Part shown: piece by piece, positions 23,200-64,000 of the stretch
How the letters are laid out: each line of letters begins with the position of its first letter
Numbering within the stretch: the stretch's first letter is position 1
DNA from: Candidatus Heimdallarchaeum aukensis
GTDB lineage: Archaea; Asgardarchaeota; Heimdallarchaeia; Heimdallarchaeales; Heimdallarchaeaceae
Length of the DNA stretch: 64,000 nucleotides
Assembly (NCBI GenBank): GCA_021513695.1
Contig: CP084166.1
Location: forward strand, 3,017,794-3,081,793
Direction of reading: 5' to 3'
Notes under the pieces: model-generated
Databases searched by the model: none
What the model saw: only the letters and a program-made list of their open reading frames with translations
What the model was told of the DNA's origin: nothing
Position numbers and translations under genes: made by a program

Positions 23200-23329
23200 A
23201 TAATATAATCCTCTTTTTTTTTATTTTCTTTTTTTTGAAGTTTTTAAAGAATAATCAAATTAAGTTAGCACAAATAACAGCAAAGTTAAATATGACTACC
23301 TTTGAGAATAAAGTAAGATTGGTGAGATT

Positions 23330-24286
23330 ATGTCTGAGGATGAACAAAAAACTCAAGTTGAAGAAGAGAAAACTGAGGTAAAAGAAGAAAAAGAAGAAAC
23401 TCCCTTGGAAATGTACCAAAAAGCTGGAAAAGTAGCTCACGAAATTCTTCAAACACTTAAAGATATGGCTAAACCCGGAGTTAAAGCTCTAGATTTAAGT
23501 GAAAAAGCAGATGCAATGATAGCTGAAGCAGGAATGAAACCTGCATTTCCTCTAAATATAGCAATAAACAATCATGCTGCTCATTACACTTGTCCTTGGG
23601 AAGATGATTTGATTCTTCAAGAGGGAGATGTAGTAAAAATTGATGTTGGTGTTCATTATAAAGGTTTTATTGCAGATACAGCTTTAACTGTTGCTTTTGA
23701 TGATGTCCATAATGATTTAATTAAAGCAAGTAAAGAAGCAACTGAAACAGCCGTAAAAGTTATACGTGTAGGAAATTATACTGGTAAATTAGGAGATCTA
23801 ATTGAAAATATTATTGAAGGATACGGCTTCTCAACAGTAAAAGACTTGTCAGGCCATTTGCTTATGCCTTATCTTGTTCATGGTCCAAAAACTATTCCAA
23901 ATGTAAGTGGAAGAAAAGGTAACTTGATTTTACAAGATGAAGCTTATGCTATTGAAACCTTCGCAACAACAGGTGCAGGAGAATCAAAACCAGATAAAAC
24001 AAAGTTATATATTGTAAGGTTAGCAGAAGGAAGATTTCCACTAAGAACAAGAGCTGCAAAAGATGTTAGAAATCTTCTAGATAGAGAATATCATAGAATG
24101 CCTGTAGCAACAAGATGGATATATAAGGCCCTTGGTCCTGCTAAGGCAAAAATGGGTATTAGAGAATTAATTAATGTGGGAGCTTTATATCAATATCATG
24201 TGCTTTCTGATACTTCTGGATCTTTTGTATCACAGCATGAGCATACAGTTTACATGACAGAAGAAGGGCCAGTACAAACTACATAA
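23330..24286 (+). CDS. map: methionine aminopeptidase type 2-like protein (copy 1)
   Basis: Pita-bread fold motifs carrying the MetAP2 metal ligands: KIDVGVH, ADTALT, GHLL, AIETF. The acidic/lysine-rich N-terminal extension is reminiscent of eukaryotic MetAP2 and PA2G4. A GGTGA ribosome-binding site lies 5 nt upstream. Confidence 0.7.
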   Translation: MSEDEQKTQVEEEKTEVKEEKEETPLEMYQKAGKVAHEILQTLKDMAKPGVKALDLSEKADAMIAEAGMKPAFPLNIAINNHAAHYTCPWEDDLILQEGDVVKIDVGVHYKGFIADTALTVAFDDVHNDLIKASKEATETAVKVIRVGNYTGKLGDLIENIIEGYGFSTVKDLSGHLLMPYLVHGPKTIPNVSGRKGNLILQDEAYAIETFATTGAGESKPDKTKLYIVRLAEGRFPLRTRAAKDVRNLLDREYHRMPVATRWIYKALGPAKAKMGIRELINVGALYQYHVLSDTSGSFVSQHEHTVYMTEEGPVQTT

Positions 24287-24416
24287 TCCTTTTTTTATTT
24301 TACTGTTTATTTTTTGTTTTGAGAATAGTAATTTTGTATTTTCATTTAAAAAAATCATTTTTTAAGAACAATAAATCTTTAATATTGAAAAGTTGTAAAT
24401 GAATGTGTTGATATAA

Positions 24417-25639
24417 TTGACTTTACAGACAAGTGAATTCAAATTTATAATGTATGAACCATGTTTTAATAATTACGATATTGTGTATAACGAATATATG
24501 CTGGCTTATGAAGAATTTAAGAAACTAGGAGAAGAGATGTCAATTTTCGCGTTCTCTCTTACTTCTATGAAGGAATGCTCTATCTTATTAATGGTGACAA
24601 ATTCTTTTCTCAGAAGGAATACAAAAAAGCAAATGAAAACTATGAAGAAGCACAAAAATTAATTACTCGCTCTAGAGCATCAAGAGGAATTGAAAAAGAT
24701 ACTATCTGGCAAGAAATGGTTAAATGGATAGCATATTGCGAATCTTATACTAATCTTTCCAAGAGTTATTTAGTCAAAGATTTCTCAGAAAAAATTGAAC
24801 TATTAAAGAAAAGCAAGGCAGCAATTAAAGATTTTGTAGAAAAAAGGAAATATGATGAAAACATCATCTTGGATATCTATGCAAAAGCTAAAGAAAATTA
24901 TATCAAGTACATTTATTACATAAATTTAGCTCAAAAATATGAGAAAAACACAAGAATGCAGAAAAAAATACTCCTTAAAGCGAGAAGAAAGCTACTTTTA
25001 GCTCACTTTATTCTTAATCACTATGAAGAAGAAATAGATGATTTAGACTTTAAAATTGATGAGCTAACAAAGACACACATAGTTGAAAGAGCAGAAATGT
25101 ACTGGAACAAGGGAACTTTACTAATTTCTCAAAGTGACTTTATGAGTGCACACAAATATCTTCTTCTAGCTTCTCAGTACTATGAACGAGCAAGCAAAAT
25201 ATGTTCAGAATTTATTGAATTAAGATTATATTTAGCTCTTAGTAAAATAACAGAAAGTAGCGGTCTTGAAGCAAAAGCTAATGAACTTTACAGAAGGCAG
25301 GACAAGCCCCTAGAAGCCAGTAAACTGTTTGAAGAAGCATATGAAGTTGTAGACGAATCCCTCGGTTTACTAGCTACAATTCACAATGAAGTGTTAATAA
25401 ACAATATGACTGCACAAAGATCTTATTATGAAGCTTTAGCACTCGAAGCAAAAGGTATATCCCTCTTTGACGAAGAGAAATATAAAGAATCTATAGAAAT
25501 TTTTGAACAATCAATGCAAAAATTAGAAGAAACAGAACGCTTAGTAGTCGAAGGTAGTTCAGAGCATTTACAAGAGTACATTCGCTTAGCTAAGAATGAG
25601 ATTGAAGGTTATTTATCTATGGCAAAAACTATGCTTTAG
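24417..25639 (+). pseudogene. TPR-like helical-repeat protein gene, frameshifted (copy 1)
   Basis: Two overlapping ORFs (24417..24662 and 24575..25639) together equal the intact 407-aa ORF of copy 2. Copy 1 lacks one A in the GAGAA run near 24537. Confidence 0.6.
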
Positions 25640-25697
25640 TATCAAATTTTTCTTCAATCAATAATCTTTATTTATCACAATATAAACAATAAATGCA

Positions 25698-26393
25698 ATG
25701 CTGTTTGACGATTTTGAAATAAAGGAGTACTTGGAAAATTTTTTCTCAAAGAATCTATCTGCCAAAGATTATCCTGAACCCGACACTGATCTCGATCATA
25801 AATTAGTTTGGAATTACAGTGAAAATGGAGATGCTTTTTCAGTACTTCTTGATCCAATAAATGATGCTTACGAATACTTTGGAGTTACTGTAGGTGAGAT
25901 ATTTGCTCACCATCGATTCAAACCAATTGTTTGGCACTTGTATCTTTTTGGCAATAAAATAAAGAGCTTTGAATGGATTAAATTAAAAGATGGAACTGAT
26001 TATCTTATTAATGTTGGGACTTACTCTTTTATTTCTTATATCTACGATTTTAAAAGTGGGAAAAGGTTATACAGAAACCCAATAGAAGAGATAAAATCTC
26101 AAATATATTCACTTAACCTCAAGTATGATATATCTGTAAATGATGTAAATGAATTTGTAGAATATTCTTTTATTGAAGACTACAGGTGGGGAGAAGTTTC
26201 GAGAAACGCTATAATAGCTCTTATACTAGATAATTTCAATAAAGATAAAATAAATGTTAATGTTCTAGGATTAATTAATCGTGTTTTACACGAATATTCT
26301 AATTACGAATCAGACAAACAACTACTAGAAAGAGTGAAAAAAGGAGAATCACCTTTTGAACTAGGGACTATCTTTTATAACGATTTTATATAA
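25698..26393 (+). CDS. hypothetical protein (copy 1)
   Basis: 231-aa ORF, duplicated identically at 30554..31249. Confidence 0.4.
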   Translation: MLFDDFEIKEYLENFFSKNLSAKDYPEPDTDLDHKLVWNYSENGDAFSVLLDPINDAYEYFGVTVGEIFAHHRFKPIVWHLYLFGNKIKSFEWIKLKDGTDYLINVGTYSFISYIYDFKSGKRLYRNPIEEIKSQIYSLNLKYDISVNDVNEFVEYSFIEDYRWGEVSRNAIIALILDNFNKDKINVNVLGLINRVLHEYSNYESDKQLLERVKKGESPFELGTIFYNDFI

Positions 26394-26406
26394 AAAGAGA
26401 AAAAAT

Positions 26407-26706
26407 TTAACTCATTTTAAATTCTACACCGAATCCTCCATGAGGATAGTGCCAATCAACACTTCCGTGAGGACAAACAAGCCTACATGTTCCACATTCA
26501 ACACAAGGTGCATAATCAAACGTTACAGGTACATCTCCATCTTCAACTAGTTTATAACATTCTGCAGGGCAACCATATACACAGTCATATGTCTTACATT
26601 TAGTTTTGCATATCTCCTCGTTTATGGTAATGTGAGCAAAATTTTTGTCTGTAACATACTTTGTTAATGCAAGTTTTTCTTCAATTTTTATTGGATTTTC
26701 TACCAT
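26407..26706 (-). CDS. fixX: ferredoxin-like protein FixX (copy 1)
   Basis: 99 aa. A CVECGTCRLVCP cluster. Immediately downstream of fixC. Confidence 0.75.
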   Translation of the reverse strand: MVENPIKIEEKLALTKYVTDKNFAHITINEEICKTKCKTYDCVYGCPAECYKLVEDGDVPVTFDYAPCVECGTCRLVCPHGSVDWHYPHGGFGVEFKMS

Positions 26707-26718
26707 TCTTTTCTCCTC

Positions 26719-28032
26719 CTAAATAGATCTTAAAGCAGCAAAAGCATCTCCCATGAGCTTAAACAGCTTACCTTTCTTTAGGAAGTGCTTAATAGCTGTA
26801 GGAACAATTCTTTTTCTAGGCTCTCCAGTGTTGTGTAAAAGTTGATACATCAAAGAATTAAGCAGTTCTGGATAAACATTGAAAATTCTCTCTCTCTCCA
26901 AGAACTTTGCAGCTCGTTTAAATCTCTTCAAATCTTGCAAAACAAAACTATCTCGCAATAATTTCAAATAAATCTTTGTTCCTTCTGCAGAATAATCATT
27001 TGTTGTTAAAGCTTCTTTTGCTGCTAACCCTGCTAGTCTTCCAGACTCTAAAGCAAAATTCATACCTTCTATGTACAAACCTGCGTTAAGAACCATACCA
27101 GCAGCATCACCAGCAATCATCACACCGTTCCCATATAACTTAGGCATGTGTTTGTATCCCCCTTCAGGAATAGCGTGAGCAGAGTATTCAACCATTTTAG
27201 CATCTTTAAGGAGCTTTTGGATGTAGGGGTGTTTCTTAAAATCTTCAAAAGCATCAATCGCTCTGATCTTTTTTTGTATAAGTTTTTTCATGTTTAAGAT
27301 CAATCCAAAAGAAAGTGTTTCTTTATTTGTATAGAAGAATCCTCCTCCTGGAATTCCATGAGTATAACCTAGAAACTCGTTACTTATTCCTTCATTTCCA
27401 TTAAGATGAAATCTCTCTTCAATTATTTCTTTCTTTAATTCATATGTTTCTTTCATTCCTACAGCGTAGTGTGAAGGTGAAGGCTTTTTAGCAAGTTTAG
27501 CTTTTTCTGCTAATAAAGTAACAGCTCCTTCAGCAATTATAGTGAGTTTAGCTTTTAATTCATCTTCTCCAGATTCTATTCCTATAATTTGATTATCCTT
27601 CCAAATGAAATCTTCAGCTACAGTGTTGTCGAGAATAAAAGCTCCTGCTTCTTCTGCTTTTTGGGCCAACCATCTGTCAAATTTTGGACGAATAACAGTT
27701 ACACCATTGTAAGGTGGTTCGGCAAAATCTTGTAAATCAATATCAATAGTCATTGCTCGCTTTTCAGACAAAAGAGTAATCTTTTTAGTTGTTAAATATC
27801 TCTCAATAGCATCTTCTTCCCAATAGTTAGGAACGATTTTATTTAGTACTGGGCCGTAAAGAGCTCCTCCACTTACATTTTTTGCACCAGGATACTGTCC
27901 TCTTTCAATAATAGCAACCTCTTTTCCTTCCTTTGCTAAAGTTAATGCTGCAGAAGAACCAGCTAGTCCAGCTCCAACTATAATTACATCAAAATCGTAT
28001 TCTACAGTCATAAAAAAATGTTTGATTTTCAA
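26719..28032 (-). CDS. fixC: FAD-dependent oxidoreductase FixC (ETF-quinone oxidoreductase-like), copy 1
   Basis: DVIIVGAGLAGSSAAL Rossmann motif, length 437 aa, adjacent to fixX. Confidence 0.8.
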   Translation of the reverse strand: MKIKHFFMTVEYDFDVIIVGAGLAGSSAALTLAKEGKEVAIIERGQYPGAKNVSGGALYGPVLNKIVPNYWEEDAIERYLTTKKITLLSEKRAMTIDIDLQDFAEPPYNGVTVIRPKFDRWLAQKAEEAGAFILDNTVAEDFIWKDNQIIGIESGEDELKAKLTIIAEGAVTLLAEKAKLAKKPSPSHYAVGMKETYELKKEIIEERFHLNGNEGISNEFLGYTHGIPGGGFFYTNKETLSFGLILNMKKLIQKKIRAIDAFEDFKKHPYIQKLLKDAKMVEYSAHAIPEGGYKHMPKLYGNGVMIAGDAAGMVLNAGLYIEGMNFALESGRLAGLAAKEALTTNDYSAEGTKIYLKLLRDSFVLQDLKRFKRAAKFLERERIFNVYPELLNSLMYQLLHNTGEPRKRIVPTAIKHFLKKGKLFKLMGDAFAALRSI

Positions 28033-28184
28033 TATAAAATGTTTATGTGAAAATATAAAAAAGAAAATAGAAAAGAATGAAAAATTATTTTATCTTTTTT
28101 AAAGAATAATCAAATTAAGTTAGCACAAATAACAGCAAAGTTAAATATGACTACCTTTGAGAATAAAGTAAGATTGGTGAGATT

Positions 28185-29141
28185 ATGTCTGAGGATGAAC
28201 AAAAAACTCAAGTTGAAGAAGAGAAAACTGAGGTAAAAGAAGAAAAAGAAGAAACTCCCTTGGAAATGTACCAAAAAGCTGGAAAAGTAGCTCACGAAAT
28301 TCTTCAAACACTTAAAGATATGGCTAAACCCGGAGTTAAAGCTCTAGATTTAAGTGAAAAAGCAGATGCAATGATAGCTGAAGCAGGAATGAAACCTGCA
28401 TTTCCTCTAAATATAGCAATAAACAATCATGCTGCTCATTACACTTGTCCTTGGGAAGATGATTTGATTCTTCAAGAGGGAGATGTAGTAAAAATTGATG
28501 TTGGTGTTCATTATAAAGGTTTTATTGCAGATACAGCTTTAACTGTTGCTTTTGATGATGTCCATAATGATTTAATTAAAGCAAGTAAAGAAGCAACTGA
28601 AACAGCCGTAAAAGTTATACGTGTAGGAAATTATACTGGTAAATTAGGAGATCTAATTGAAAATATTATTGAAGGATACGGCTTCTCAACAGTAAAAGAC
28701 TTGTCAGGCCATTTGCTTATGCCTTATCTTGTTCATGGTCCAAAAACTATTCCAAATGTAAGTGGAAGAAAAGGTAACTTGATTTTACAAGATGAAGCTT
28801 ATGCTATTGAAACCTTCGCAACAACAGGTGCAGGAGAATCAAAACCAGATAAAACAAAGTTATATATTGTAAGGTTAGCAGAAGGAAGATTTCCACTAAG
28901 AACAAGAGCTGCAAAAGATGTTAGAAATCTTCTAGATAGAGAATATCATAGAATGCCTGTAGCAACAAGATGGATATATAAGGCCCTTGGTCCTGCTAAG
29001 GCAAAAATGGGTATTAGAGAATTAATTAATGTGGGAGCTTTATATCAATATCATGTGCTTTCTGATACTTCTGGATCTTTTGTATCACAGCATGAGCATA
29101 CAGTTTACATGACAGAAGAAGGGCCAGTACAAACTACATAA
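28185..29141 (+). CDS. map: methionine aminopeptidase type 2-like protein (copy 2)
   Basis: Identical to 23330..24286. Confidence 0.7.
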   Translation: MSEDEQKTQVEEEKTEVKEEKEETPLEMYQKAGKVAHEILQTLKDMAKPGVKALDLSEKADAMIAEAGMKPAFPLNIAINNHAAHYTCPWEDDLILQEGDVVKIDVGVHYKGFIADTALTVAFDDVHNDLIKASKEATETAVKVIRVGNYTGKLGDLIENIIEGYGFSTVKDLSGHLLMPYLVHGPKTIPNVSGRKGNLILQDEAYAIETFATTGAGESKPDKTKLYIVRLAEGRFPLRTRAAKDVRNLLDREYHRMPVATRWIYKALGPAKAKMGIRELINVGALYQYHVLSDTSGSFVSQHEHTVYMTEEGPVQTT

Positions 29142-29271
29142 TCCTTTTTTTATTTTACTGTTTATTTTTTGTTTTGAGAATAGTAATTTTGTATTTTCAT
29201 TTAAAAAAATCATTTTTTAAGAACAATAAATCTTTAATATTGAAAAGTTGTAAATGAATGTGTTGATATAA

Positions 29272-30495
29272 TTGACTTTACAGACAAGTGAATTCAAATT
29301 TATAATGTATGAACCATGTTTTAATAATTACGATATTGTGTATAACGAATATATGCTGGCTTATGAAGAATTTAAGAAACTAGGAGAAGAGAATGTCAAT
29401 TTTCGCGTTCTCTCTTACTTCTATGAAGGAATGCTCTATCTTATTAATGGTGACAAATTCTTTTCTCAGAAGGAATACAAAAAAGCAAATGAAAACTATG
29501 AAGAAGCACAAAAATTAATTACTCGCTCTAGAGCATCAAGAGGAATTGAAAAAGATACTATCTGGCAAGAAATGGTTAAATGGATAGCATATTGCGAATC
29601 TTATACTAATCTTTCCAAGAGTTATTTAGTCAAAGATTTCTCAGAAAAAATTGAACTATTAAAGAAAAGCAAGGCAGCAATTAAAGATTTTGTAGAAAAA
29701 AGGAAATATGATGAAAACATCATCTTGGATATCTATGCAAAAGCTAAAGAAAATTATATCAAGTACATTTATTACATAAATTTAGCTCAAAAATATGAGA
29801 AAAACACAAGAATGCAGAAAAAAATACTCCTTAAAGCGAGAAGAAAGCTACTTTTAGCTCACTTTATTCTTAATCACTATGAAGAAGAAATAGATGATTT
29901 AGACTTTAAAATTGATGAGCTAACAAAGACACACATAGTTGAAAGAGCAGAAATGTACTGGAACAAGGGAACTTTACTAATTTCTCAAAGTGACTTTATG
30001 AGTGCACACAAATATCTTCTTCTAGCTTCTCAGTACTATGAACGAGCAAGCAAAATATGTTCAGAATTTATTGAATTAAGATTATATTTAGCTCTTAGTA
30101 AAATAACAGAAAGTAGCGGTCTTGAAGCAAAAGCTAATGAACTTTACAGAAGGCAGGACAAGCCCCTAGAAGCCAGTAAACTGTTTGAAGAAGCATATGA
30201 AGTTGTAGACGAATCCCTCGGTTTACTAGCTACAATTCACAATGAAGTGTTAATAAACAATATGACTGCACAAAGATCTTATTATGAAGCTTTAGCACTC
30301 GAAGCAAAAGGTATATCCCTCTTTGACGAAGAGAAATATAAAGAATCTATAGAAATTTTTGAACAATCAATGCAAAAATTAGAAGAAACAGAACGCTTAG
30401 TAGTCGAAGGTAGTTCAGAGCATTTACAAGAGTACATTCGCTTAGCTAAGAATGAGATTGAAGGTTATTTATCTATGGCAAAAACTATGCTTTAG
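29272..30495 (+). CDS. TPR-like helical-repeat protein (intact copy)
   Basis: 407-aa all-helical ORF with repeated hydrophobic/aromatic heptad-like patterns (e.g. YEEAQKLI, YERASKIC, YYEALALEAKG). Confidence 0.5.
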   Translation: MTLQTSEFKFIMYEPCFNNYDIVYNEYMLAYEEFKKLGEENVNFRVLSYFYEGMLYLINGDKFFSQKEYKKANENYEEAQKLITRSRASRGIEKDTIWQEMVKWIAYCESYTNLSKSYLVKDFSEKIELLKKSKAAIKDFVEKRKYDENIILDIYAKAKENYIKYIYYINLAQKYEKNTRMQKKILLKARRKLLLAHFILNHYEEEIDDLDFKIDELTKTHIVERAEMYWNKGTLLISQSDFMSAHKYLLLASQYYERASKICSEFIELRLYLALSKITESSGLEAKANELYRRQDKPLEASKLFEEAYEVVDESLGLLATIHNEVLINNMTAQRSYYEALALEAKGISLFDEEKYKESIEIFEQSMQKLEETERLVVEGSSEHLQEYIRLAKNEIEGYLSMAKTML

Positions 30496-30553
30496 TATCA
30501 AATTTTTCTTCAATCAATAATCTTTATTTATCACAATATAAACAATAAATGCA

Positions 30554-31249
30554 ATGCTGTTTGACGATTTTGAAATAAAGGAGTACTTGGAAAATTTTTT
30601 CTCAAAGAATCTATCTGCCAAAGATTATCCTGAACCCGACACTGATCTCGATCATAAATTAGTTTGGAATTACAGTGAAAATGGAGATGCTTTTTCAGTA
30701 CTTCTTGATCCAATAAATGATGCTTACGAATACTTTGGAGTTACTGTAGGTGAGATATTTGCTCACCATCGATTCAAACCAATTGTTTGGCACTTGTATC
30801 TTTTTGGCAATAAAATAAAGAGCTTTGAATGGATTAAATTAAAAGATGGAACTGATTATCTTATTAATGTTGGGACTTACTCTTTTATTTCTTATATCTA
30901 CGATTTTAAAAGTGGGAAAAGGTTATACAGAAACCCAATAGAAGAGATAAAATCTCAAATATATTCACTTAACCTCAAGTATGATATATCTGTAAATGAT
31001 GTAAATGAATTTGTAGAATATTCTTTTATTGAAGACTACAGGTGGGGAGAAGTTTCGAGAAACGCTATAATAGCTCTTATACTAGATAATTTCAATAAAG
31101 ATAAAATAAATGTTAATGTTCTAGGATTAATTAATCGTGTTTTACACGAATATTCTAATTACGAATCAGACAAACAACTACTAGAAAGAGTGAAAAAAGG
31201 AGAATCACCTTTTGAACTAGGGACTATCTTTTATAACGATTTTATATAA
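30554..31249 (+). CDS. hypothetical protein (copy 2)
   Basis: Identical to 25698..26393. Confidence 0.4.
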   Translation: MLFDDFEIKEYLENFFSKNLSAKDYPEPDTDLDHKLVWNYSENGDAFSVLLDPINDAYEYFGVTVGEIFAHHRFKPIVWHLYLFGNKIKSFEWIKLKDGTDYLINVGTYSFISYIYDFKSGKRLYRNPIEEIKSQIYSLNLKYDISVNDVNEFVEYSFIEDYRWGEVSRNAIIALILDNFNKDKINVNVLGLINRVLHEYSNYESDKQLLERVKKGESPFELGTIFYNDFI

Positions 31250-31262
31250 AAAGAGAAAAAAT

Positions 31263-31562
31263 TTAACTCATTTTAAATTCTACACCGAATCCTCCATGAG
31301 GATAGTGCCAATCAACACTTCCGTGAGGACAAACAAGCCTACATGTTCCACATTCAACACAAGGTGCATAATCAAACGTTACAGGTACATCTCCATCTTC
31401 AACTAGTTTATAACATTCTGCAGGGCAACCATATACACAGTCATATGTCTTACATTTAGTTTTGCATATCTCCTCGTTTATGGTAATGTGAGCAAAATTT
31501 TTGTCTGTAACATACTTTGTTAATGCAAGTTTTTCTTCAATTTTTATTGGATTTTCTACCAT
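31263..31562 (-). CDS. fixX: ferredoxin-like protein FixX (copy 2)
   Basis: Identical to copy 1. Confidence 0.75.
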   Translation of the reverse strand: MVENPIKIEEKLALTKYVTDKNFAHITINEEICKTKCKTYDCVYGCPAECYKLVEDGDVPVTFDYAPCVECGTCRLVCPHGSVDWHYPHGGFGVEFKMS

Positions 31563-31574
31563 TCTTTTCTCCTC

Positions 31575-32888
31575 CTAAATAGATCTTAAAGCAGCAAAAG
31601 CATCTCCCATGAGCTTAAACAGCTTACCTTTCTTTAGGAAGTGCTTAATAGCTGTAGGAACAATTCTTTTTCTAGGCTCTCCAGTGTTGTGTAAAAGTTG
31701 ATACATCAAAGAATTAAGCAGTTCTGGATAAACATTGAAAATTCTCTCTCTCTCCAAGAACTTTGCAGCTCGTTTAAATCTCTTCAAATCTTGCAAAACA
31801 AAACTATCTCGCAATAATTTCAAATAAATCTTTGTTCCTTCTGCAGAATAATCATTTGTTGTTAAAGCTTCTTTTGCTGCTAACCCTGCTAGTCTTCCAG
31901 ACTCTAAAGCAAAATTCATACCTTCTATGTACAAACCTGCGTTAAGAACCATACCAGCAGCATCACCAGCAATCATCACACCGTTCCCATATAACTTAGG
32001 CATGTGTTTGTATCCCCCTTCAGGAATAGCGTGAGCAGAGTATTCAACCATTTTAGCATCTTTAAGGAGCTTTTGGATGTAGGGGTGTTTCTTAAAATCT
32101 TCAAAAGCATCAATCGCTCTGATCTTTTTTTGTATAAGTTTTTTCATGTTTAAGATCAATCCAAAAGAAAGTGTTTCTTTATTTGTATAGAAGAATCCTC
32201 CTCCTGGAATTCCATGAGTATAACCTAGAAACTCGTTACTTATTCCTTCATTTCCATTAAGATGAAATCTCTCTTCAATTATTTCTTTCTTTAATTCATA
32301 TGTTTCTTTCATTCCTACAGCGTAGTGTGAAGGTGAAGGCTTTTTAGCAAGTTTAGCTTTTTCTGCTAATAAAGTAACAGCTCCTTCAGCAATTATAGTG
32401 AGTTTAGCTTTTAATTCATCTTCTCCAGATTCTATTCCTATAATTTGATTATCCTTCCAAATGAAATCTTCAGCTACAGTGTTGTCGAGAATAAAAGCTC
32501 CTGCTTCTTCTGCTTTTTGGGCCAACCATCTGTCAAATTTTGGACGAATAACAGTTACACCATTGTAAGGTGGTTCGGCAAAATCTTGTAAATCAATATC
32601 AATAGTCATTGCTCGCTTTTCAGACAAAAGAGTAATCTTTTTAGTTGTTAAATATCTCTCAATAGCATCTTCTTCCCAATAGTTAGGAACGATTTTATTT
32701 AGTACTGGGCCGTAAAGAGCTCCTCCACTTACATTTTTTGCACCAGGATACTGTCCTCTTTCAATAATAGCAACCTCTTTTCCTTCCTTTGCTAAAGTTA
32801 ATGCTGCAGAAGAACCAGCTAGTCCAGCTCCAACTATAATTACATCAAAATCGTATTCTACAGTCATAAAAAAATGTTTGATTTTCAA
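31575..32888 (-). CDS. fixC: FAD-dependent oxidoreductase FixC, copy 2 (contiguous with etfBA)
   Basis: Identical to copy 1. Directly downstream of etfA. Confidence 0.8.
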   Translation of the reverse strand: MKIKHFFMTVEYDFDVIIVGAGLAGSSAALTLAKEGKEVAIIERGQYPGAKNVSGGALYGPVLNKIVPNYWEEDAIERYLTTKKITLLSEKRAMTIDIDLQDFAEPPYNGVTVIRPKFDRWLAQKAEEAGAFILDNTVAEDFIWKDNQIIGIESGEDELKAKLTIIAEGAVTLLAEKAKLAKKPSPSHYAVGMKETYELKKEIIEERFHLNGNEGISNEFLGYTHGIPGGGFFYTNKETLSFGLILNMKKLIQKKIRAIDAFEDFKKHPYIQKLLKDAKMVEYSAHAIPEGGYKHMPKLYGNGVMIAGDAAGMVLNAGLYIEGMNFALESGRLAGLAAKEALTTNDYSAEGTKIYLKLLRDSFVLQDLKRFKRAAKFLERERIFNVYPELLNSLMYQLLHNTGEPRKRIVPTAIKHFLKKGKLFKLMGDAFAALRSI

Positions 32889-32940
32889 TATAAAATGTTT
32901 ATGTGAAAATATAAAAAAGAAAATAGAAAAGAATGAAAAA

Positions 32941-36599: not shown

Positions 36600-36759
36600 A
36601 ATAGTCTGAAATTCTTCAAAGTTTAAAAATTTGTCTAATCAAACCTTATTTATAAACAATTACAGTTTAAAAAAAGAAAAAAAGAAAAAAAGTTATTTGA
36701 TATGAGCTGGTCTATATCCAGCATGTGCAAGAATACTTGTTGCTTTACCTATGATTTAC

Positions 36760-37060
36760 TTTTTTACATAAAGTTTTTCGCACTCTGTCTTGCAAGAGAA
36801 AAAACTAAAGGAAGTTTAATCTCTTGAACTCAACCAAGCCATACAATGCCGTGAAGGGGTTGAGACAGACATCATACACGAATCGTGGGAATCATAAAGA
36901 AGAAAAGAGTTGTAAGTTCTTTTCTTCACTCCACGAGAGACAAAAAAGAAAGAATTACCCACTAAAAGAGAGAAGTAATTACTTTCCTTTTTGTCTACTG
37001 GGACTGCAACCAATGGCTGAGCCCTAGACAAACAGTGAAATGAGTGAGACTGTATTTCTG
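36760..37060 (-). ncRNA. candidate omega-RNA (reRNA) of TnpB, overlapping the tnpB 3' end and the right end of the IS
   Basis: This region is distinctly GC-richer than its surroundings and has overlapping ORFs on both strands (36816..37031), typical of a structured RNA. Its position relative to tnpB matches known omega-RNAs. Extent is not determined. Confidence 0.3.
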
Positions 37061-38452
37061 ACCAGTGAGGTAATCGGTGATAGTATTTCCTCGAGGACGG
37101 AAAAGTTCCCCAAGGAACTTACGCGCGATATTCATTGCTCCAGTGAGGTCAGAGTGGAAAGTGTAATTGCAAGAGGGACAATGGACTAAACCTCTAACGG
37201 GACGGATAACTTTCCTTCCGCAACGAGTACAGTGAGAGGATGTTCCTTTTTCCTCTATCGTTAATATTCGGTGAGGTTCAAAACCTCTTAATATCAATGC
37301 TCGATGAAGAAGAGCAAGAACAAGAGAAAAGTTCCACTGATGAAGTTTTCTACGAAACTTACGAGTAATTTTTCTCTTTCCTTTCTCCTCTCGAATGTGT
37401 TTAGGATAACCTACAACGACGAAAAGGTCATACCTTTGTGCATAAGTTTCTATCGTCTGCACGACATTGTTTATAAATTGGTGAATATAGACGCGTTTAA
37501 CGTTTTTATATCTTCTTCGGAGAAGGCCGAGAAAACGGTAAATTTGGTGTTTTTTACCAGATTGGTCGTTTAAAGCCGCTTTCCTCTGAAGACGGGAAAG
37601 TTTGAGTTTATATCGATGATTAACTCTATTCCACTGTTTGGTATACCAGAATTTTATCTCTTTGTTTGTTAATTTCTTTTTAGGGGTTAGAAGCACTCCT
37701 GCAGCAGGAATGTTTATACCTAGATCTATTCCCAGCACAGCTGGGGGAAGAGAAGAAGAATTCTCTTTTTCAGGAGAATAAAAAGAAGGAGGAGGAAGAA
37801 CTTTTAGTTGGAAATACACCCACCACTCACGTGTAGAACGTTTATATCTTAGTTCTAAACTTTTCACTCTCCCTTTCTTTAACTCTTTCTGGTGGAAAGT
37901 GCTCATCTCTAAAGGTAACCATAGTTTCTGATGATAAGGTGTGTTTCTTCTCCACGTATCTAACGAGTCTCTTATCCCCACCCACCAACGAGTAAGTGTA
38001 TTATTCTTCTCTTTTGGCAGATGCACGAGAACAAACCTCTTTGCATTAATTAGTTGTCTTCTTGCTCTCTTTATTGGAAGACGAGTAGGACTGGGTCTAT
38101 ACCCTTGCTCGTATAGTTGCACAGCTATATCTCTACATTCTTGGAATTCATTGTGAGAACAATAAGGGAACATTTTCTTGAAATCGTGAAGAACAGTCTC
38201 TCTCCTCTCTTCTACTCTCTTTAATCTTGATGTCGTTAGCGTCAGTTCATCTAGTTTTCCTCTGTGAACTCTTATTTTCCCATTTTTAGTTTTAGTACAT
38301 ATTTTTCTTCTGTTGTGATGTATAATTCTCACATACTTTTCTATTATCCTTGTGTCTCTCCCCGTTATTTTCCTTAACTTTTCCTTTTTTCTCGTCGTCA
38401 ATACCTCATTCTTTATCCTCACTTTCAAGGTTTTGACGACGTCCTCCACCAT
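36995..38452 (-). CDS. tnpB: TnpB (OrfB) RNA-guided endonuclease of an IS200/IS605-family element
   Basis: 485 aa with a C-terminal zinc finger (CTRCG ... CPSCN). An upstream DLGINIPA motif could carry the RuvC-I catalytic Asp; this assignment is uncertain. The N-terminus is a basic helix-rich region. Confidence 0.8.
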   Translation of the reverse strand: MVEDVVKTLKVRIKNEVLTTRKKEKLRKITGRDTRIIEKYVRIIHHNRRKICTKTKNGKIRVHRGKLDELTLTTSRLKRVEERRETVLHDFKKMFPYCSHNEFQECRDIAVQLYEQGYRPSPTRLPIKRARRQLINAKRFVLVHLPKEKNNTLTRWWVGIRDSLDTWRRNTPYHQKLWLPLEMSTFHQKELKKGRVKSLELRYKRSTREWWVYFQLKVLPPPSFYSPEKENSSSLPPAVLGIDLGINIPAAGVLLTPKKKLTNKEIKFWYTKQWNRVNHRYKLKLSRLQRKAALNDQSGKKHQIYRFLGLLRRRYKNVKRVYIHQFINNVVQTIETYAQRYDLFVVVGYPKHIREEKGKRKITRKFRRKLHQWNFSLVLALLHRALILRGFEPHRILTIEEKGTSSHCTRCGRKVIRPVRGLVHCPSCNYTFHSDLTGAMNIARKFLGELFRPRGNTITDYLTGQKYSLTHFTVCLGLSHWLQSQ

Positions 38453-38772
38453 TTTTTTCCTTCCTTCTTTTCTTTTTCTGTTTATTTTTTCTATTTTTTT
38501 TCTTCTTCTCTTTTTATTTTACTTTTTTTTCCTATAAAAACCCCTCTCCTTCCTCTCCTCTCTTCTCTTTCTTCCTCACTTTGCTGTCAACAACTGTAAA
38601 TTACGTAAAAAATAGACGCATGTGAATCGTCAATACTTAGTTTATATATTATTTAAATATTATTCCTCTTAAACTGCCATTATCCAGTAAAATATTTATA
38701 TATTTTTGAGAAAAACATATTTTCTTAAAATTATATTTTTTGAATAAGGAAAAAGATAGTCCAAGACCAAAT

Positions 38773-63926: not shown

Positions 63927-64000
63927 TGGTGCACGAGCCGGGAATTGAACCCGGATTTGTGGAATGGGAGTCCACGGTCCTACCATTAGACTACTCGTGC
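63927..64000 (-). tRNA. tRNA-Gly (anticodon CCC) with genomically encoded 3' CCA
   Basis: The reverse complement reads GCACGAG-TA-GTCT-AATGGTA-GGAC-C-GTGGA-CTCCCAT-TCCAC-AAATC-CGGGT-TCAATTC-CCGGC-TCGTGC-A-CCA. It has 7-bp acceptor, D, anticodon and T arms. The T-loop TTCAATTC is U-U-C-R-A-like. Confidence 0.8.

Follow-up and report, generated by a model that had tools for sequence, protein, structure and literature searches.

The window analysed here is a 64-kb stretch of DNA with a G+C content of about 31%, whose host, judging from the closest database relatives of one of its proteins, is a Heimdallarchaeum-like Asgard archaeon. At positions 36751..38622 on the minus strand it holds a 1872-bp element composed of a left terminal repeat, a purine-rich leader, a tnpB gene, the predicted scaffold of an omega-RNA and a right terminal repeat. 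The neighbouring genes encode a GNAT acetyltransferase, a Ras-family (Ras-like) GTPase and a TetR regulator. No transposase gene lies in the element or adjoins it in the window, in line with a preliminary description of this DNA, made from the sequence alone, which had called the tnpB gene stand-alone and without TnpA. Judged from its sequence, this is a genuine and probably functional TnpB/omega-RNA element. It belongs to an ordinary class, but the architecture of its ends is unusual; it does not match the IS200/IS605 family of insertion sequences (IS) and appears not to match the IS607 family.

The tnpB open reading frame (ORF; 36995..38452, minus strand) encodes a protein of 485 amino acids. 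As had been proposed, this is a TnpB with a C-terminal zinc finger: residues 396-442 match PF07282 (Cas12f1-like TNB) with 36.7 bits against a cutoff of 26.3, the sole Pfam match, and four invariant cysteines form the motif C408xxC411-x13-C425xxC428 (37169..37231, minus strand). The 371 homologues come almost throughout from Asgard archaea. The closest are annotated as 'transposase' or 'zinc ribbon' proteins and share 90% identity (Candidatus Heimdallarchaeum endolithica) or 88% identity (Ca. H. aukensis), and the remoter ones, at 33-51% identity, are almost exclusively from Heimdall- and Thorarchaeota, some of them carrying the database label 'IS605 OrfB'. A search with the family profile matches Cas12f and TnpB structures at E-values down to 6e-20. 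An AlphaFold2 model (mean confidence, pLDDT, 82.3) was aligned by Foldseek over its full length to Cas12f, ISDra2 TnpB and Fanzor2 (probability 1.0, TM 0.5-0.65), the E-values being 1.5e-14 for AsCas12f (8j3r), 1.4e-11 for ISDra2 TnpB (8h1j) and 2.8e-10 for mimivirus Fanzor2 (9b0l).

Invariance of the catalytic residues was scored on an alignment of 28 family members with 33-90% identity; all codons given below are on the minus strand. D243 (37724..37726), in the RuvC-I motif GIDLG, is invariant (28/28) and aligned to GIDLG of Cas12f. D435 (37148..37150), in the RuvC-III motif SDLTGAMNI, is likewise invariant and aligned to the aspartate of NADxNAA in Cas12f; in the profile alignments both residues coincide with the RuvC-I and RuvC-III aspartates. 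The canonical position of the RuvC-II glutamate, about 50 residues ahead of the zinc finger, is taken by an invariant glycine, G348 (37409..37411, in VVVGYP), which is aligned to the catalytic glutamate of IQMEDL in AsCas12f. An alternative RuvC-II glutamate, E401 (37250..37252), is invariant and stands six residues ahead of C408 in the context E-x-(W/G)-T-S-x-x-C, where the profile alignment has the proline of 'idPqyTS'. In the structural model G348 ends strand 342-349 and E401 directly follows strand 396-400.

Replacement of the RuvC-II glutamate by glycine, with a compensating glutamate on strand beta-5, was described by Altae-Tran et al. (2023; PMC10691335), and a glutamate six residues before the first CxxC was termed 'Ealt' by Yoon et al. 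(2023; PMC10711439). The window protein satisfies the pattern D{P}G-x(120,160)-E-x6-CxxC-x(12,18)-CxxC-x(4,8)-D given in the latter study, with spacings of 155, 13 and 6. By these residues it is a RuvC-II-rearranged or Ealt TnpB, a catalogued group, and its RuvC site appears complete though rearranged (D243, E401 for the canonical glutamate, D435), as would be expected of an active nuclease. The preliminary description had named the loss of the D...E...D triad as the mark of a decayed relic; on alignment the triad is present in its rearranged form. In addition, dN/dS among copies is 0.12-0.24, indicating that the protein is under purifying selection.

Further copies with conserved ends, by which it had been proposed to delimit the element, were indeed found. 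A genome scan of the chromosome of Ca. H. endolithica revealed 11 copies, with 79-90% nucleotide identity to the window element, and more were present in metagenomic contigs at unrelated sites. Both limits of the element are the exact points at which homology to the H. endolithica copies begins or ceases abruptly, the flanks of the window element and those of the H. endolithica copies being unrelated. Contigs of the same strain as the window (SRR15988954, 100% identity) end at 36798 and 38587, within the two element ends. Such breaks are expected where a sequence is repeated and suggest that the element is a repeat. Among closely related strains, some have the element and others are without it. 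The H. endolithica copies are 79-97% identical to one another and form two subfamilies plus one recombinant: this copy (L004, H. endolithica 3317850-3326783) combines a left repeat as in subfamily 1 with a right repeat and an RNA region as in subfamily 2, and is 84-87% identical to both. The H. endolithica genome paper reports 'transposase/integrase' families reaching 27 copies, which it leaves unnamed (PMC8813620); no IS-family names occur in the supplements of the Heimdallarchaeum genome paper, and we found no published description of Heimdallarchaeum tnpB elements with CATG-type ends.

The ends of the element are inverted repeats of about 22 nt that start with CATG. The left repeat reads CATGCGTCTATTTTTTACGTAA (38601..38622, minus strand) and the right repeat, on the plus strand, TATGATTTACTTTTTTACATAA (36750..36771), base 36750 belonging to the flank (G in most copies, here A). 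The complement of the right end reads (C/T)ATGATTTACTTTTTTAC(G/A)TAA. The pattern CATG-N6-TTTTTTACGTAA has two matches in the window, both of them element ends, where 0.15 would be expected, and it bounds every copy of subfamily 1. The repeat of subfamily 2, CATGNTTTACTTTTTGCG, differs from that of subfamily 1 and is found at both ends, and a relative at 42% identity has the ends CATGGTTGTTTTTCCCCACTTT and CATGAGTTATTTTCCCCACTTT. Since the two ends differ together between subfamilies and clades, they co-evolve as inverted repeats. Subterminal hairpins are absent, as single-stranded DNA folds of both ends, on both strands, gave z-scores of 0.0 to +0.6 relative to shuffled sequences. The earlier assignment to an IS200/IS605-type element with distinctive ends therefore holds for the gene content and for the conservation of the ends, but these ends are inverted repeats without hairpins, so that gene content is the sole basis for that class.

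The left end opens with CATG in 21/21 elements, preceded by A, C or G and never by T (0/21), while the right end always closes with TCAT, followed by G in 14/19, A in 3/19 and T in 2/19. A CAT thus stands ahead of the element in 21/21 copies, yet CAT also makes up the last three bases of the element. Comparison of the left CATG and its preceding base with the right TCAT and its following base shows that at most CAT is common to both junctions, and no target duplication longer than 3 bp was seen. This CAT is compatible alike with a target motif (the logic of IS605), with a duplication of 2-3 bp (cut-and-paste) and with a crossover core (a serine recombinase acting at the AT within CATG). The sequence AAATTACGTAAAA (38598-38610, plus strand), which the preliminary description had put forward as containing a TTAC-like target or transposon-associated motif (TAM), turned out to be the core of the left inverted repeat and thus to lie inside the element; only CAT, with a base other than T before it, is conserved in the flank. 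From the 21 sites we predict the motif VCAT and speculate that the T of TCAT would spare a site that is already occupied from self-cleavage. Positions -4 to -2 of the left flank show a preference for T that was not taken as significant.

Conservation continues past the tnpB stop codon for about 245 nt, right up to 36751, and ceases there. The 190-265 nt after the stop codon are predicted to encode an omega-RNA scaffold; its core, represented by our covariance model R1, would occupy 36751..36942 (minus strand), as judged from folding, covariation and slow divergence, and conserved pairing may reach upstream to 37016, overlapping the final tnpB codons. A putative omega-RNA had been proposed at this 3' side, and the region is indeed conserved and structured. 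It is also richer in G+C, as had been stated, but only slightly so (0.37 against about 0.31 for the window). Divergence (K) of the 192-nt core is 0.08-0.10 within subfamily 1, where dS is 0.29-0.33, and 0.23-0.25 between the subfamilies, where dS is 0.58-0.77; the RNA region therefore evolves about three times more slowly than synonymous sites. The window RNA folds with -76.8 kcal/mol (z = -4.4). The RNAalifold consensus of 14 copies contains 54 pairs, and 99.2% of its cells are canonical, a share that falls to 43-56% once partners are displaced by 1-3 columns. On both sides alterations are seen in five pairs, comprising 22 cells; among 500 shuffles, none equalled the 22 cells and 24 equalled the five pairs. 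R1 also matches the region downstream of a TnpB with 51% identity (E 1.4e-6). With default filters it did not reach the 42%-identity clade, for which a MAFFT/RNAalifold alignment recovered the terminal long-range helix only. A search against Rfam returned nothing in the element at the gathering thresholds or at E <= 1, save for chance microRNA-like matches, and this RNA is thus not represented in Rfam.

The scaffold closes with the six bases AAUCAU (36751..36756, minus strand; defined from the copy alignment), which adjoin the predicted guide and are the exact complement of an internal hexamer AUGAUU (36890..36895, minus strand) in 14/14 copies. The latter, the predicted pseudoknot partner, sits in the invariant motif UUAUGAUUCCC. 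In the other clades the two hexamers read AUGAGU/ACUCAU (7/7 sequences), a compensatory G:C to U:A change. A pseudoknot of about five guide-adjacent bases with an upstream loop is known, and experimentally required, in TnpB RNAs (PMC10711439). Because the AAUCAU end is predicted to pair as such a pseudoknot, the boundary between scaffold and guide was placed at 36751|36750. An additional pair, joining flank base +1 to the U that precedes AUGAUU, was dropped, as it is not kept in the other clade.

Sister-strain contigs covering the locus (L015, L017, L018 and L019) were retrieved through exact flanking proteins, and their flanks are 95-99% identical to those of the window. In these strains the interval contains a 343-bp element and, after it, an SBP_bac_5 gene broken into ORFs of 34 and 213 aa, so that, compared with the sister allele, 1.03 kb is replaced by the tnpB element in the window. 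The 343-bp element (L018 5658-6000; L015 26-403; L019 from 5658) resembles a miniature inverted-repeat transposable element (MITE): it has the CATG..TTTTTTACGTAA inverted repeats and is without tnpB. Its G+C-rich interior is similar to the RNA region found in another TnpB clade (L012 7490-7520). In the L015 copy R1 gives a full-length match (E 0.0017) that ends at the right end of the MITE, which indicates that the MITE carries an omega-like RNA but no TnpB. The window element and the MITE have an identical left junction, GATTCA|CATG. The right junction of the window element lies 57 nt ahead of the stop codon of the SBP gene, leaving outside the element a remnant of its 3' end (..GKATSILAHAGYRPAHIK*; 36693..36750, minus strand) that is 98.7-99.3% identical to the end of the ORF in L018, L015 and L017.

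Several features described earlier are to be read in the light of this comparison. The perfect hairpin GCTGG/CCAGC (36706-36724), which had been taken for a subterminal or omega-RNA feature, is located 27-45 nt beyond the right end at 36751, in the last 19 codons of the deleted SBP_bac_5 gene (codons A-G-Y-R-P-A). It reads GCAGG in L018 and L015, and its stability is not exceptional (-4.5 kcal/mol, z -1.33), 21/200 shuffles folding as well. An insertion point between a GNAT gene and a small-GTPase gene was correct as to the neighbours, but the insertion is not a simple one, the sisters holding the MITE and the SBP pseudogene at this place. Instead of an empty site, from which the target motif was to have been read, L018 provides an uninterrupted SBP_bac_5 gene end (...CTACAACAT|AGGTAAAGC...) with one CAT exactly where the right end of the window element joins, and hence the target contains CAT. 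The window and sister alleles differ by the replacement of 1.03 kb, so that no fewer than two events can connect them. The element may have inserted into the SBP gene, followed by a deletion between two directly oriented left ends with crossover at CATG; alternatively, it may have inserted at a first site, followed by an end-adjacent deletion up to the next CAT.

The predicted guide, AGGUAAAGCAACAAGUAUUC (36731..36750, minus strand), would derive from the right flank, a length of about 20 nt being assumed. Sister contig L018 contains an intact 20-nt match to it, preceded by ACAT, and by analogy this is the type of site that the TnpB of this element would be expected to cut. Beyond the SBP stop codon, at about 60-90 nt from the right end, the transcribed strand has T runs (CTTTTTTTCTTTTTTTCTTTTTTT, 36660-36692), which are a plausible archaeal terminator for a read-through omega-RNA.

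Between the left repeat and the ATG lies a purine-rich leader (38453..38600, minus strand). The polypyrimidine tract reported at 38455-38580 is real, with 90.5% pyrimidine on the plus strand and no more extreme 126-nt stretch in the 64 kb, but it is the element's own leader and not its flank. The leader can be aligned in all copies with insertions and deletions, its composition being conserved and its length variable, and Tandem Repeats Finder reports it as a loose repeat. An alignment of the upstream regions shows a TATA-box-like sequence, TTTTTATAGG (38531..38540, minus strand), whose core TTTTTATA is invariant in all copies; a TATA-like block is also found upstream of the distant relatives L012 and L029. 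Located about 80 nt ahead of the ATG, the TTTTTATA block is a candidate archaeal TATA box and promoter of tnpB.

Taken together, these data argue that the locus is probably a non-autonomous, multi-copy element that encodes an alternative-glutamate TnpB and its omega-RNA, that the two would have a role in homing, and that the element would be moved in trans. Starting from what was observed or computed, namely the family and catalytic residues of the protein, the limits, copies and inverted repeats of the element, the conservation and covariation of the RNA and the purifying selection, we infer the expression of the element, its use of a guide, its TAM, its homing role and the nature of its transposase as follows. 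Transcription through the right end into the flank would yield the guide, here AGGUAAAGCAACAAG..., in an RNA bound by TnpB. By analogy with ISDra2 and ISXfa1, the ribonucleoprotein would cut an element-free chromosome at a site combining the left-flank motif (predicted ...VCAT) with a match to the guide, and homologous repair from an occupied or sister copy would reinstate the element. Movement to new sites would depend on a transposase or recombinase supplied in trans and acting on the inverted repeats of about 22 nt, with joining at the CAT (or AT) common to both ends and target.

A number of results weigh against this interpretation. The match to NCBIfam NF040570 (guided_TnpB) scores 77.9 bits, below the cutoff of 100, and a single-sequence search of the PDB found zinc-finger noise and no solved TnpB; together with the presence of only the TNB domain in Pfam, these results identify the protein as a divergent TnpB. 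At least 2 of the 10 full-length H. endolithica copies look truncated when read in frame. The covariation in the RNA represents few independent lineages, namely two subfamilies and two or three distant clades, and two helices of the nested model compete with the proposed pseudoknot. The flanking-protein look-up returned no clean empty site, the sister alleles holding another element and a pseudogene. Finally, no candidate transposase was found beside the element, the 11 genomic copies or about 80 metagenomic relatives, so that mobility in trans is an assumption.

As to what moves the element, clustering of all ORFs in the flanks returned only an orphan protein of Thorarchaeota and, at two loci, an rve/IS481-like ORF; the neighbours of three distant homologues are housekeeping genes, and in viral contigs the repeat pattern gave 13 single, unpaired matches that were taken as chance. 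An IS607-like serine recombinase and a cut-and-paste transposase appear about equally likely, and a Y1 TnpA less likely. Transposition in the manner of IS200/IS605 elements (IS1341-type), by a Y1 HUH TnpA encoded elsewhere that acts on single-stranded DNA through subterminal hairpins and a left target motif of 4-5 nt, would agree with a gene content of tnpB only, with the 'IS605 OrfB' label of some relatives and with the failure to see duplications longer than 3 bp, and the conserved CAT immediately left of the element could serve as its target motif. It is nevertheless unlikely, given that hairpins occur at neither end on either strand and that co-varying inverted-repeat ends are not needed by a strand-specific single-stranded DNA transposase. 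They are absent from IS605-type elements, which are defined by subterminal palindromes and are without inverted repeats (PMC3119063). Moreover, a Y1 TnpA gene was found neither in the element nor next to any of the about 90 relatives with flanks, a search that covered the recurrent neighbours at these loci. An IS607-like mechanism would have a serine recombinase, acting in trans, excise a double-stranded circle and insert it through a crossover at AT within a CATG-like core. For this the Ealt active site is suggestive, as it was described as typical of the IS607 TnpB lineage (PMC10711439). Further in its favour, the target and the two ends have CAT in common, most copies agree in the first flank base (G in 14/19), as at IS607 right flanks, the joined ends would make a dyad-symmetric site around AT, and the window allele can be derived from an L018-like allele by a deletion between directly repeated left ends with crossover at CATG. 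The terminal inverted repeats fit this mechanism poorly, IS607-family elements not being known to carry them, and serine-recombinase-associated TnpB elements have asymmetric ends. RuvC-I reads DLG and not DPG as in the pro-Fanzor IS607 clade, and no serine recombinase was present in the scanned region of the window or beside any copy or relative, the remaining genome not having been searched; an IS607-like mover is thus possible but tentative.

We are similarly tentative about a DDE transposase or another double-strand cut-and-paste enzyme acting on a non-autonomous element, whose inverted repeats would be transposase binding sites and whose CAT or AT would be a duplication of 2-3 bp. The inverted repeats at the ends, and a MITE derivative that shares them, speak for such an enzyme, TnpBs within inverted-repeat DDE transposons are known, and in Fanzor elements that have repeats and short duplications the duplication becomes part of the folded RNA scaffold, like the CAT here. 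On the other hand, no autonomous partner with these repeats was found, the target (V-CAT-G) is strong and almost a palindrome, as is more typically seen in site-specific recombination, and the sole nearby DDE gene, the rve/IS481-like ORF at two loci, is not placed as a part of the element. This ORF (Pfam rve, HTH_32) is found at L010 1549-2487 (minus strand) and L032 1815-2210 (plus strand); at the latter it follows a tnpB match that covers query residues 5-175 only, suggesting that another IS inserted into the element. It is doubtful, though conceivable, that the Heimdallarchaeum elements, the MITEs and the clades with CATG repeats constitute an undescribed transposon family, whose alternative-glutamate TnpB travels between inverted-repeat ends, with a mover that is neither a Y1 nor a serine TnpA (an unrecognised transposase or, less expectedly, TnpB-dependent copying). 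A further reading is that tnpB is immobile here, either domesticated as a nuclease-dead host regulator of the TldR type or decaying as a relic. The missing canonical RuvC-II glutamate would point that way, and so would the identity of only 79-97% among copies, with no very recent burst visible in H. endolithica. This reading is very improbable and largely refuted, however: E401 compensates and is invariant, as are D243 and D435, dN/dS is 0.12-0.24, many copies occupy unrelated sites with exact boundaries, and presence or absence of the element differs among closely related strains.

The preferred interpretation, a non-autonomous TnpB/omega-RNA element moved in trans, can be set against known systems. 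Like ISDra2-type systems of the IS200/IS605 family, the window element combines a nuclease with a single RuvC domain, a zinc finger and the same fold with a predicted scaffold that runs from the 3' end of tnpB to the right end, a predicted guide from the flank and a predicted guide-adjacent pseudoknot, and in both most copies are without tnpA. Unlike them, its protein has a relocated glutamate (G348/E401) and is about 80 aa longer, it has terminal inverted repeats without hairpins, and its left-flank motif is merely CAT not preceded by T, CAT being also the last three bases of the element. With the Ealt TnpBs of IS607 elements (ISXfa1; the 'pro-Fanzor' clade, PMC10711439) it shares the glutamate six residues before CxxC, a short core common to both ends and target, and a mostly fixed flank base; it differs in having DLG instead of DPG, inverted repeats, an Asgard host and no serine recombinase found at the loci. 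The replacement of the catalytic glutamate by glycine with a compensating glutamate on the next strand is common to the RuvC-II-rearranged (RIIr) clades, some branches of which are nearly exclusive to archaea, and ends such as those of the window element are not described in that study (PMC10691335). A CRISPR array, which would be expected beside a type V (Cas12) system, is absent from the window.

With the Asgard 'Cas1H' TnpB groups (PMC10691335) the likeness lies in Thorarchaeota relatives (33-35% identity), which carry GTTCACTCA near the 3' end; the Heimdallarchaeum element, by contrast, is without GTTCACTCA and without an associated large gene, and has CATG repeats. In these Thor-type elements (L033-L099), CAGTTGAGGTTCACTCAC is found about 20-40 nt before the right boundary and equals the GTTCACTCA motif of Asgard Cas1-linked TnpBs. 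Their first bases are CTTAATAAGTTTATATA and CATG repeats are absent, which means that related TnpBs ride different ends. At 33 Thor-type loci (L033-L099), a divergent gene on the opposite strand, about 200-2300 nt upstream of tnpB, codes for the orphan protein mentioned above (>1150 aa; P0122, P0125). Neither Pfam, at E <= 1, nor a sequence search of the PDB gave a match to this protein, and homologues were found in Thorarchaeota only; it could be the partner, perhaps a transposase, of the Thor-type elements, and possibly 'Asgard Cas1'.

Eukaryotic transposons bearing Fanzor resemble the window element in being non-autonomous and nuclease-only, in having inverted repeats and in folding target-shared bases into the scaffold. 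The window element is prokaryotic, however, and, unlike Fanzor1, is predicted to retain the pseudoknot, and the likeness is one of organisation. A special link to Fanzor was rejected, Fanzor2 taking rank 16 in Foldseek and a profile E-value of 6e-10, against 6e-20 for Cas12f. Haloarchaeal palindrome-associated transposable elements and MITEs derived from IS605-type elements (PMC3119063) find a counterpart in the 343-bp element of L018 and L015, which keeps the ends and the RNA without tnpB; the ends of this element are inverted repeats, not palindromes.

Cas12 and Fanzor descend from TnpB/omega-RNA systems, which are used as compact genome editors. The present family offers an intact Asgard TnpB with an alternative glutamate, maintained by selection, for which the scaffold and the guide boundary are defined and a short motif, VCAT, is predicted. 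Inverted-repeat ends and TnpB-less MITEs also bear on the old question of what moves the stand-alone tnpB elements of archaea. Should there be neither a Y1 nor a serine partner, the view of prokaryotic TnpB as a passenger of IS605 and IS607 elements only would need widening, and if this is an undescribed family, its organisation would parallel that of the Fanzor transposons of eukaryotes, in the very archaeal lineage to which eukaryotes are most closely related.

Elsewhere in the window, two further features were observed. The very end of the window contains a tRNA-Gly(CCC) gene (63927-64000, minus strand); the genes just inside it are ordinary and encode ArsR-type regulators, radical SAM proteins and a P-type ATPase. 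HeimV1, a virus-like element of H. endolithica, reportedly integrates beside tRNA-Gly-CCC (PMC8813620). In addition, a tandem duplication of about 4.86 kb (23230-28084 and 28085-32940), which could be real or an assembly artefact, has copies that are 98-100% identical, each comprising genes for an M24 peptidase, a tetratricopeptide repeat (TPR) protein, a 231-aa protein without Pfam match and an electron transfer flavoprotein-quinone oxidoreductase (ETF-QO, FixC-like).

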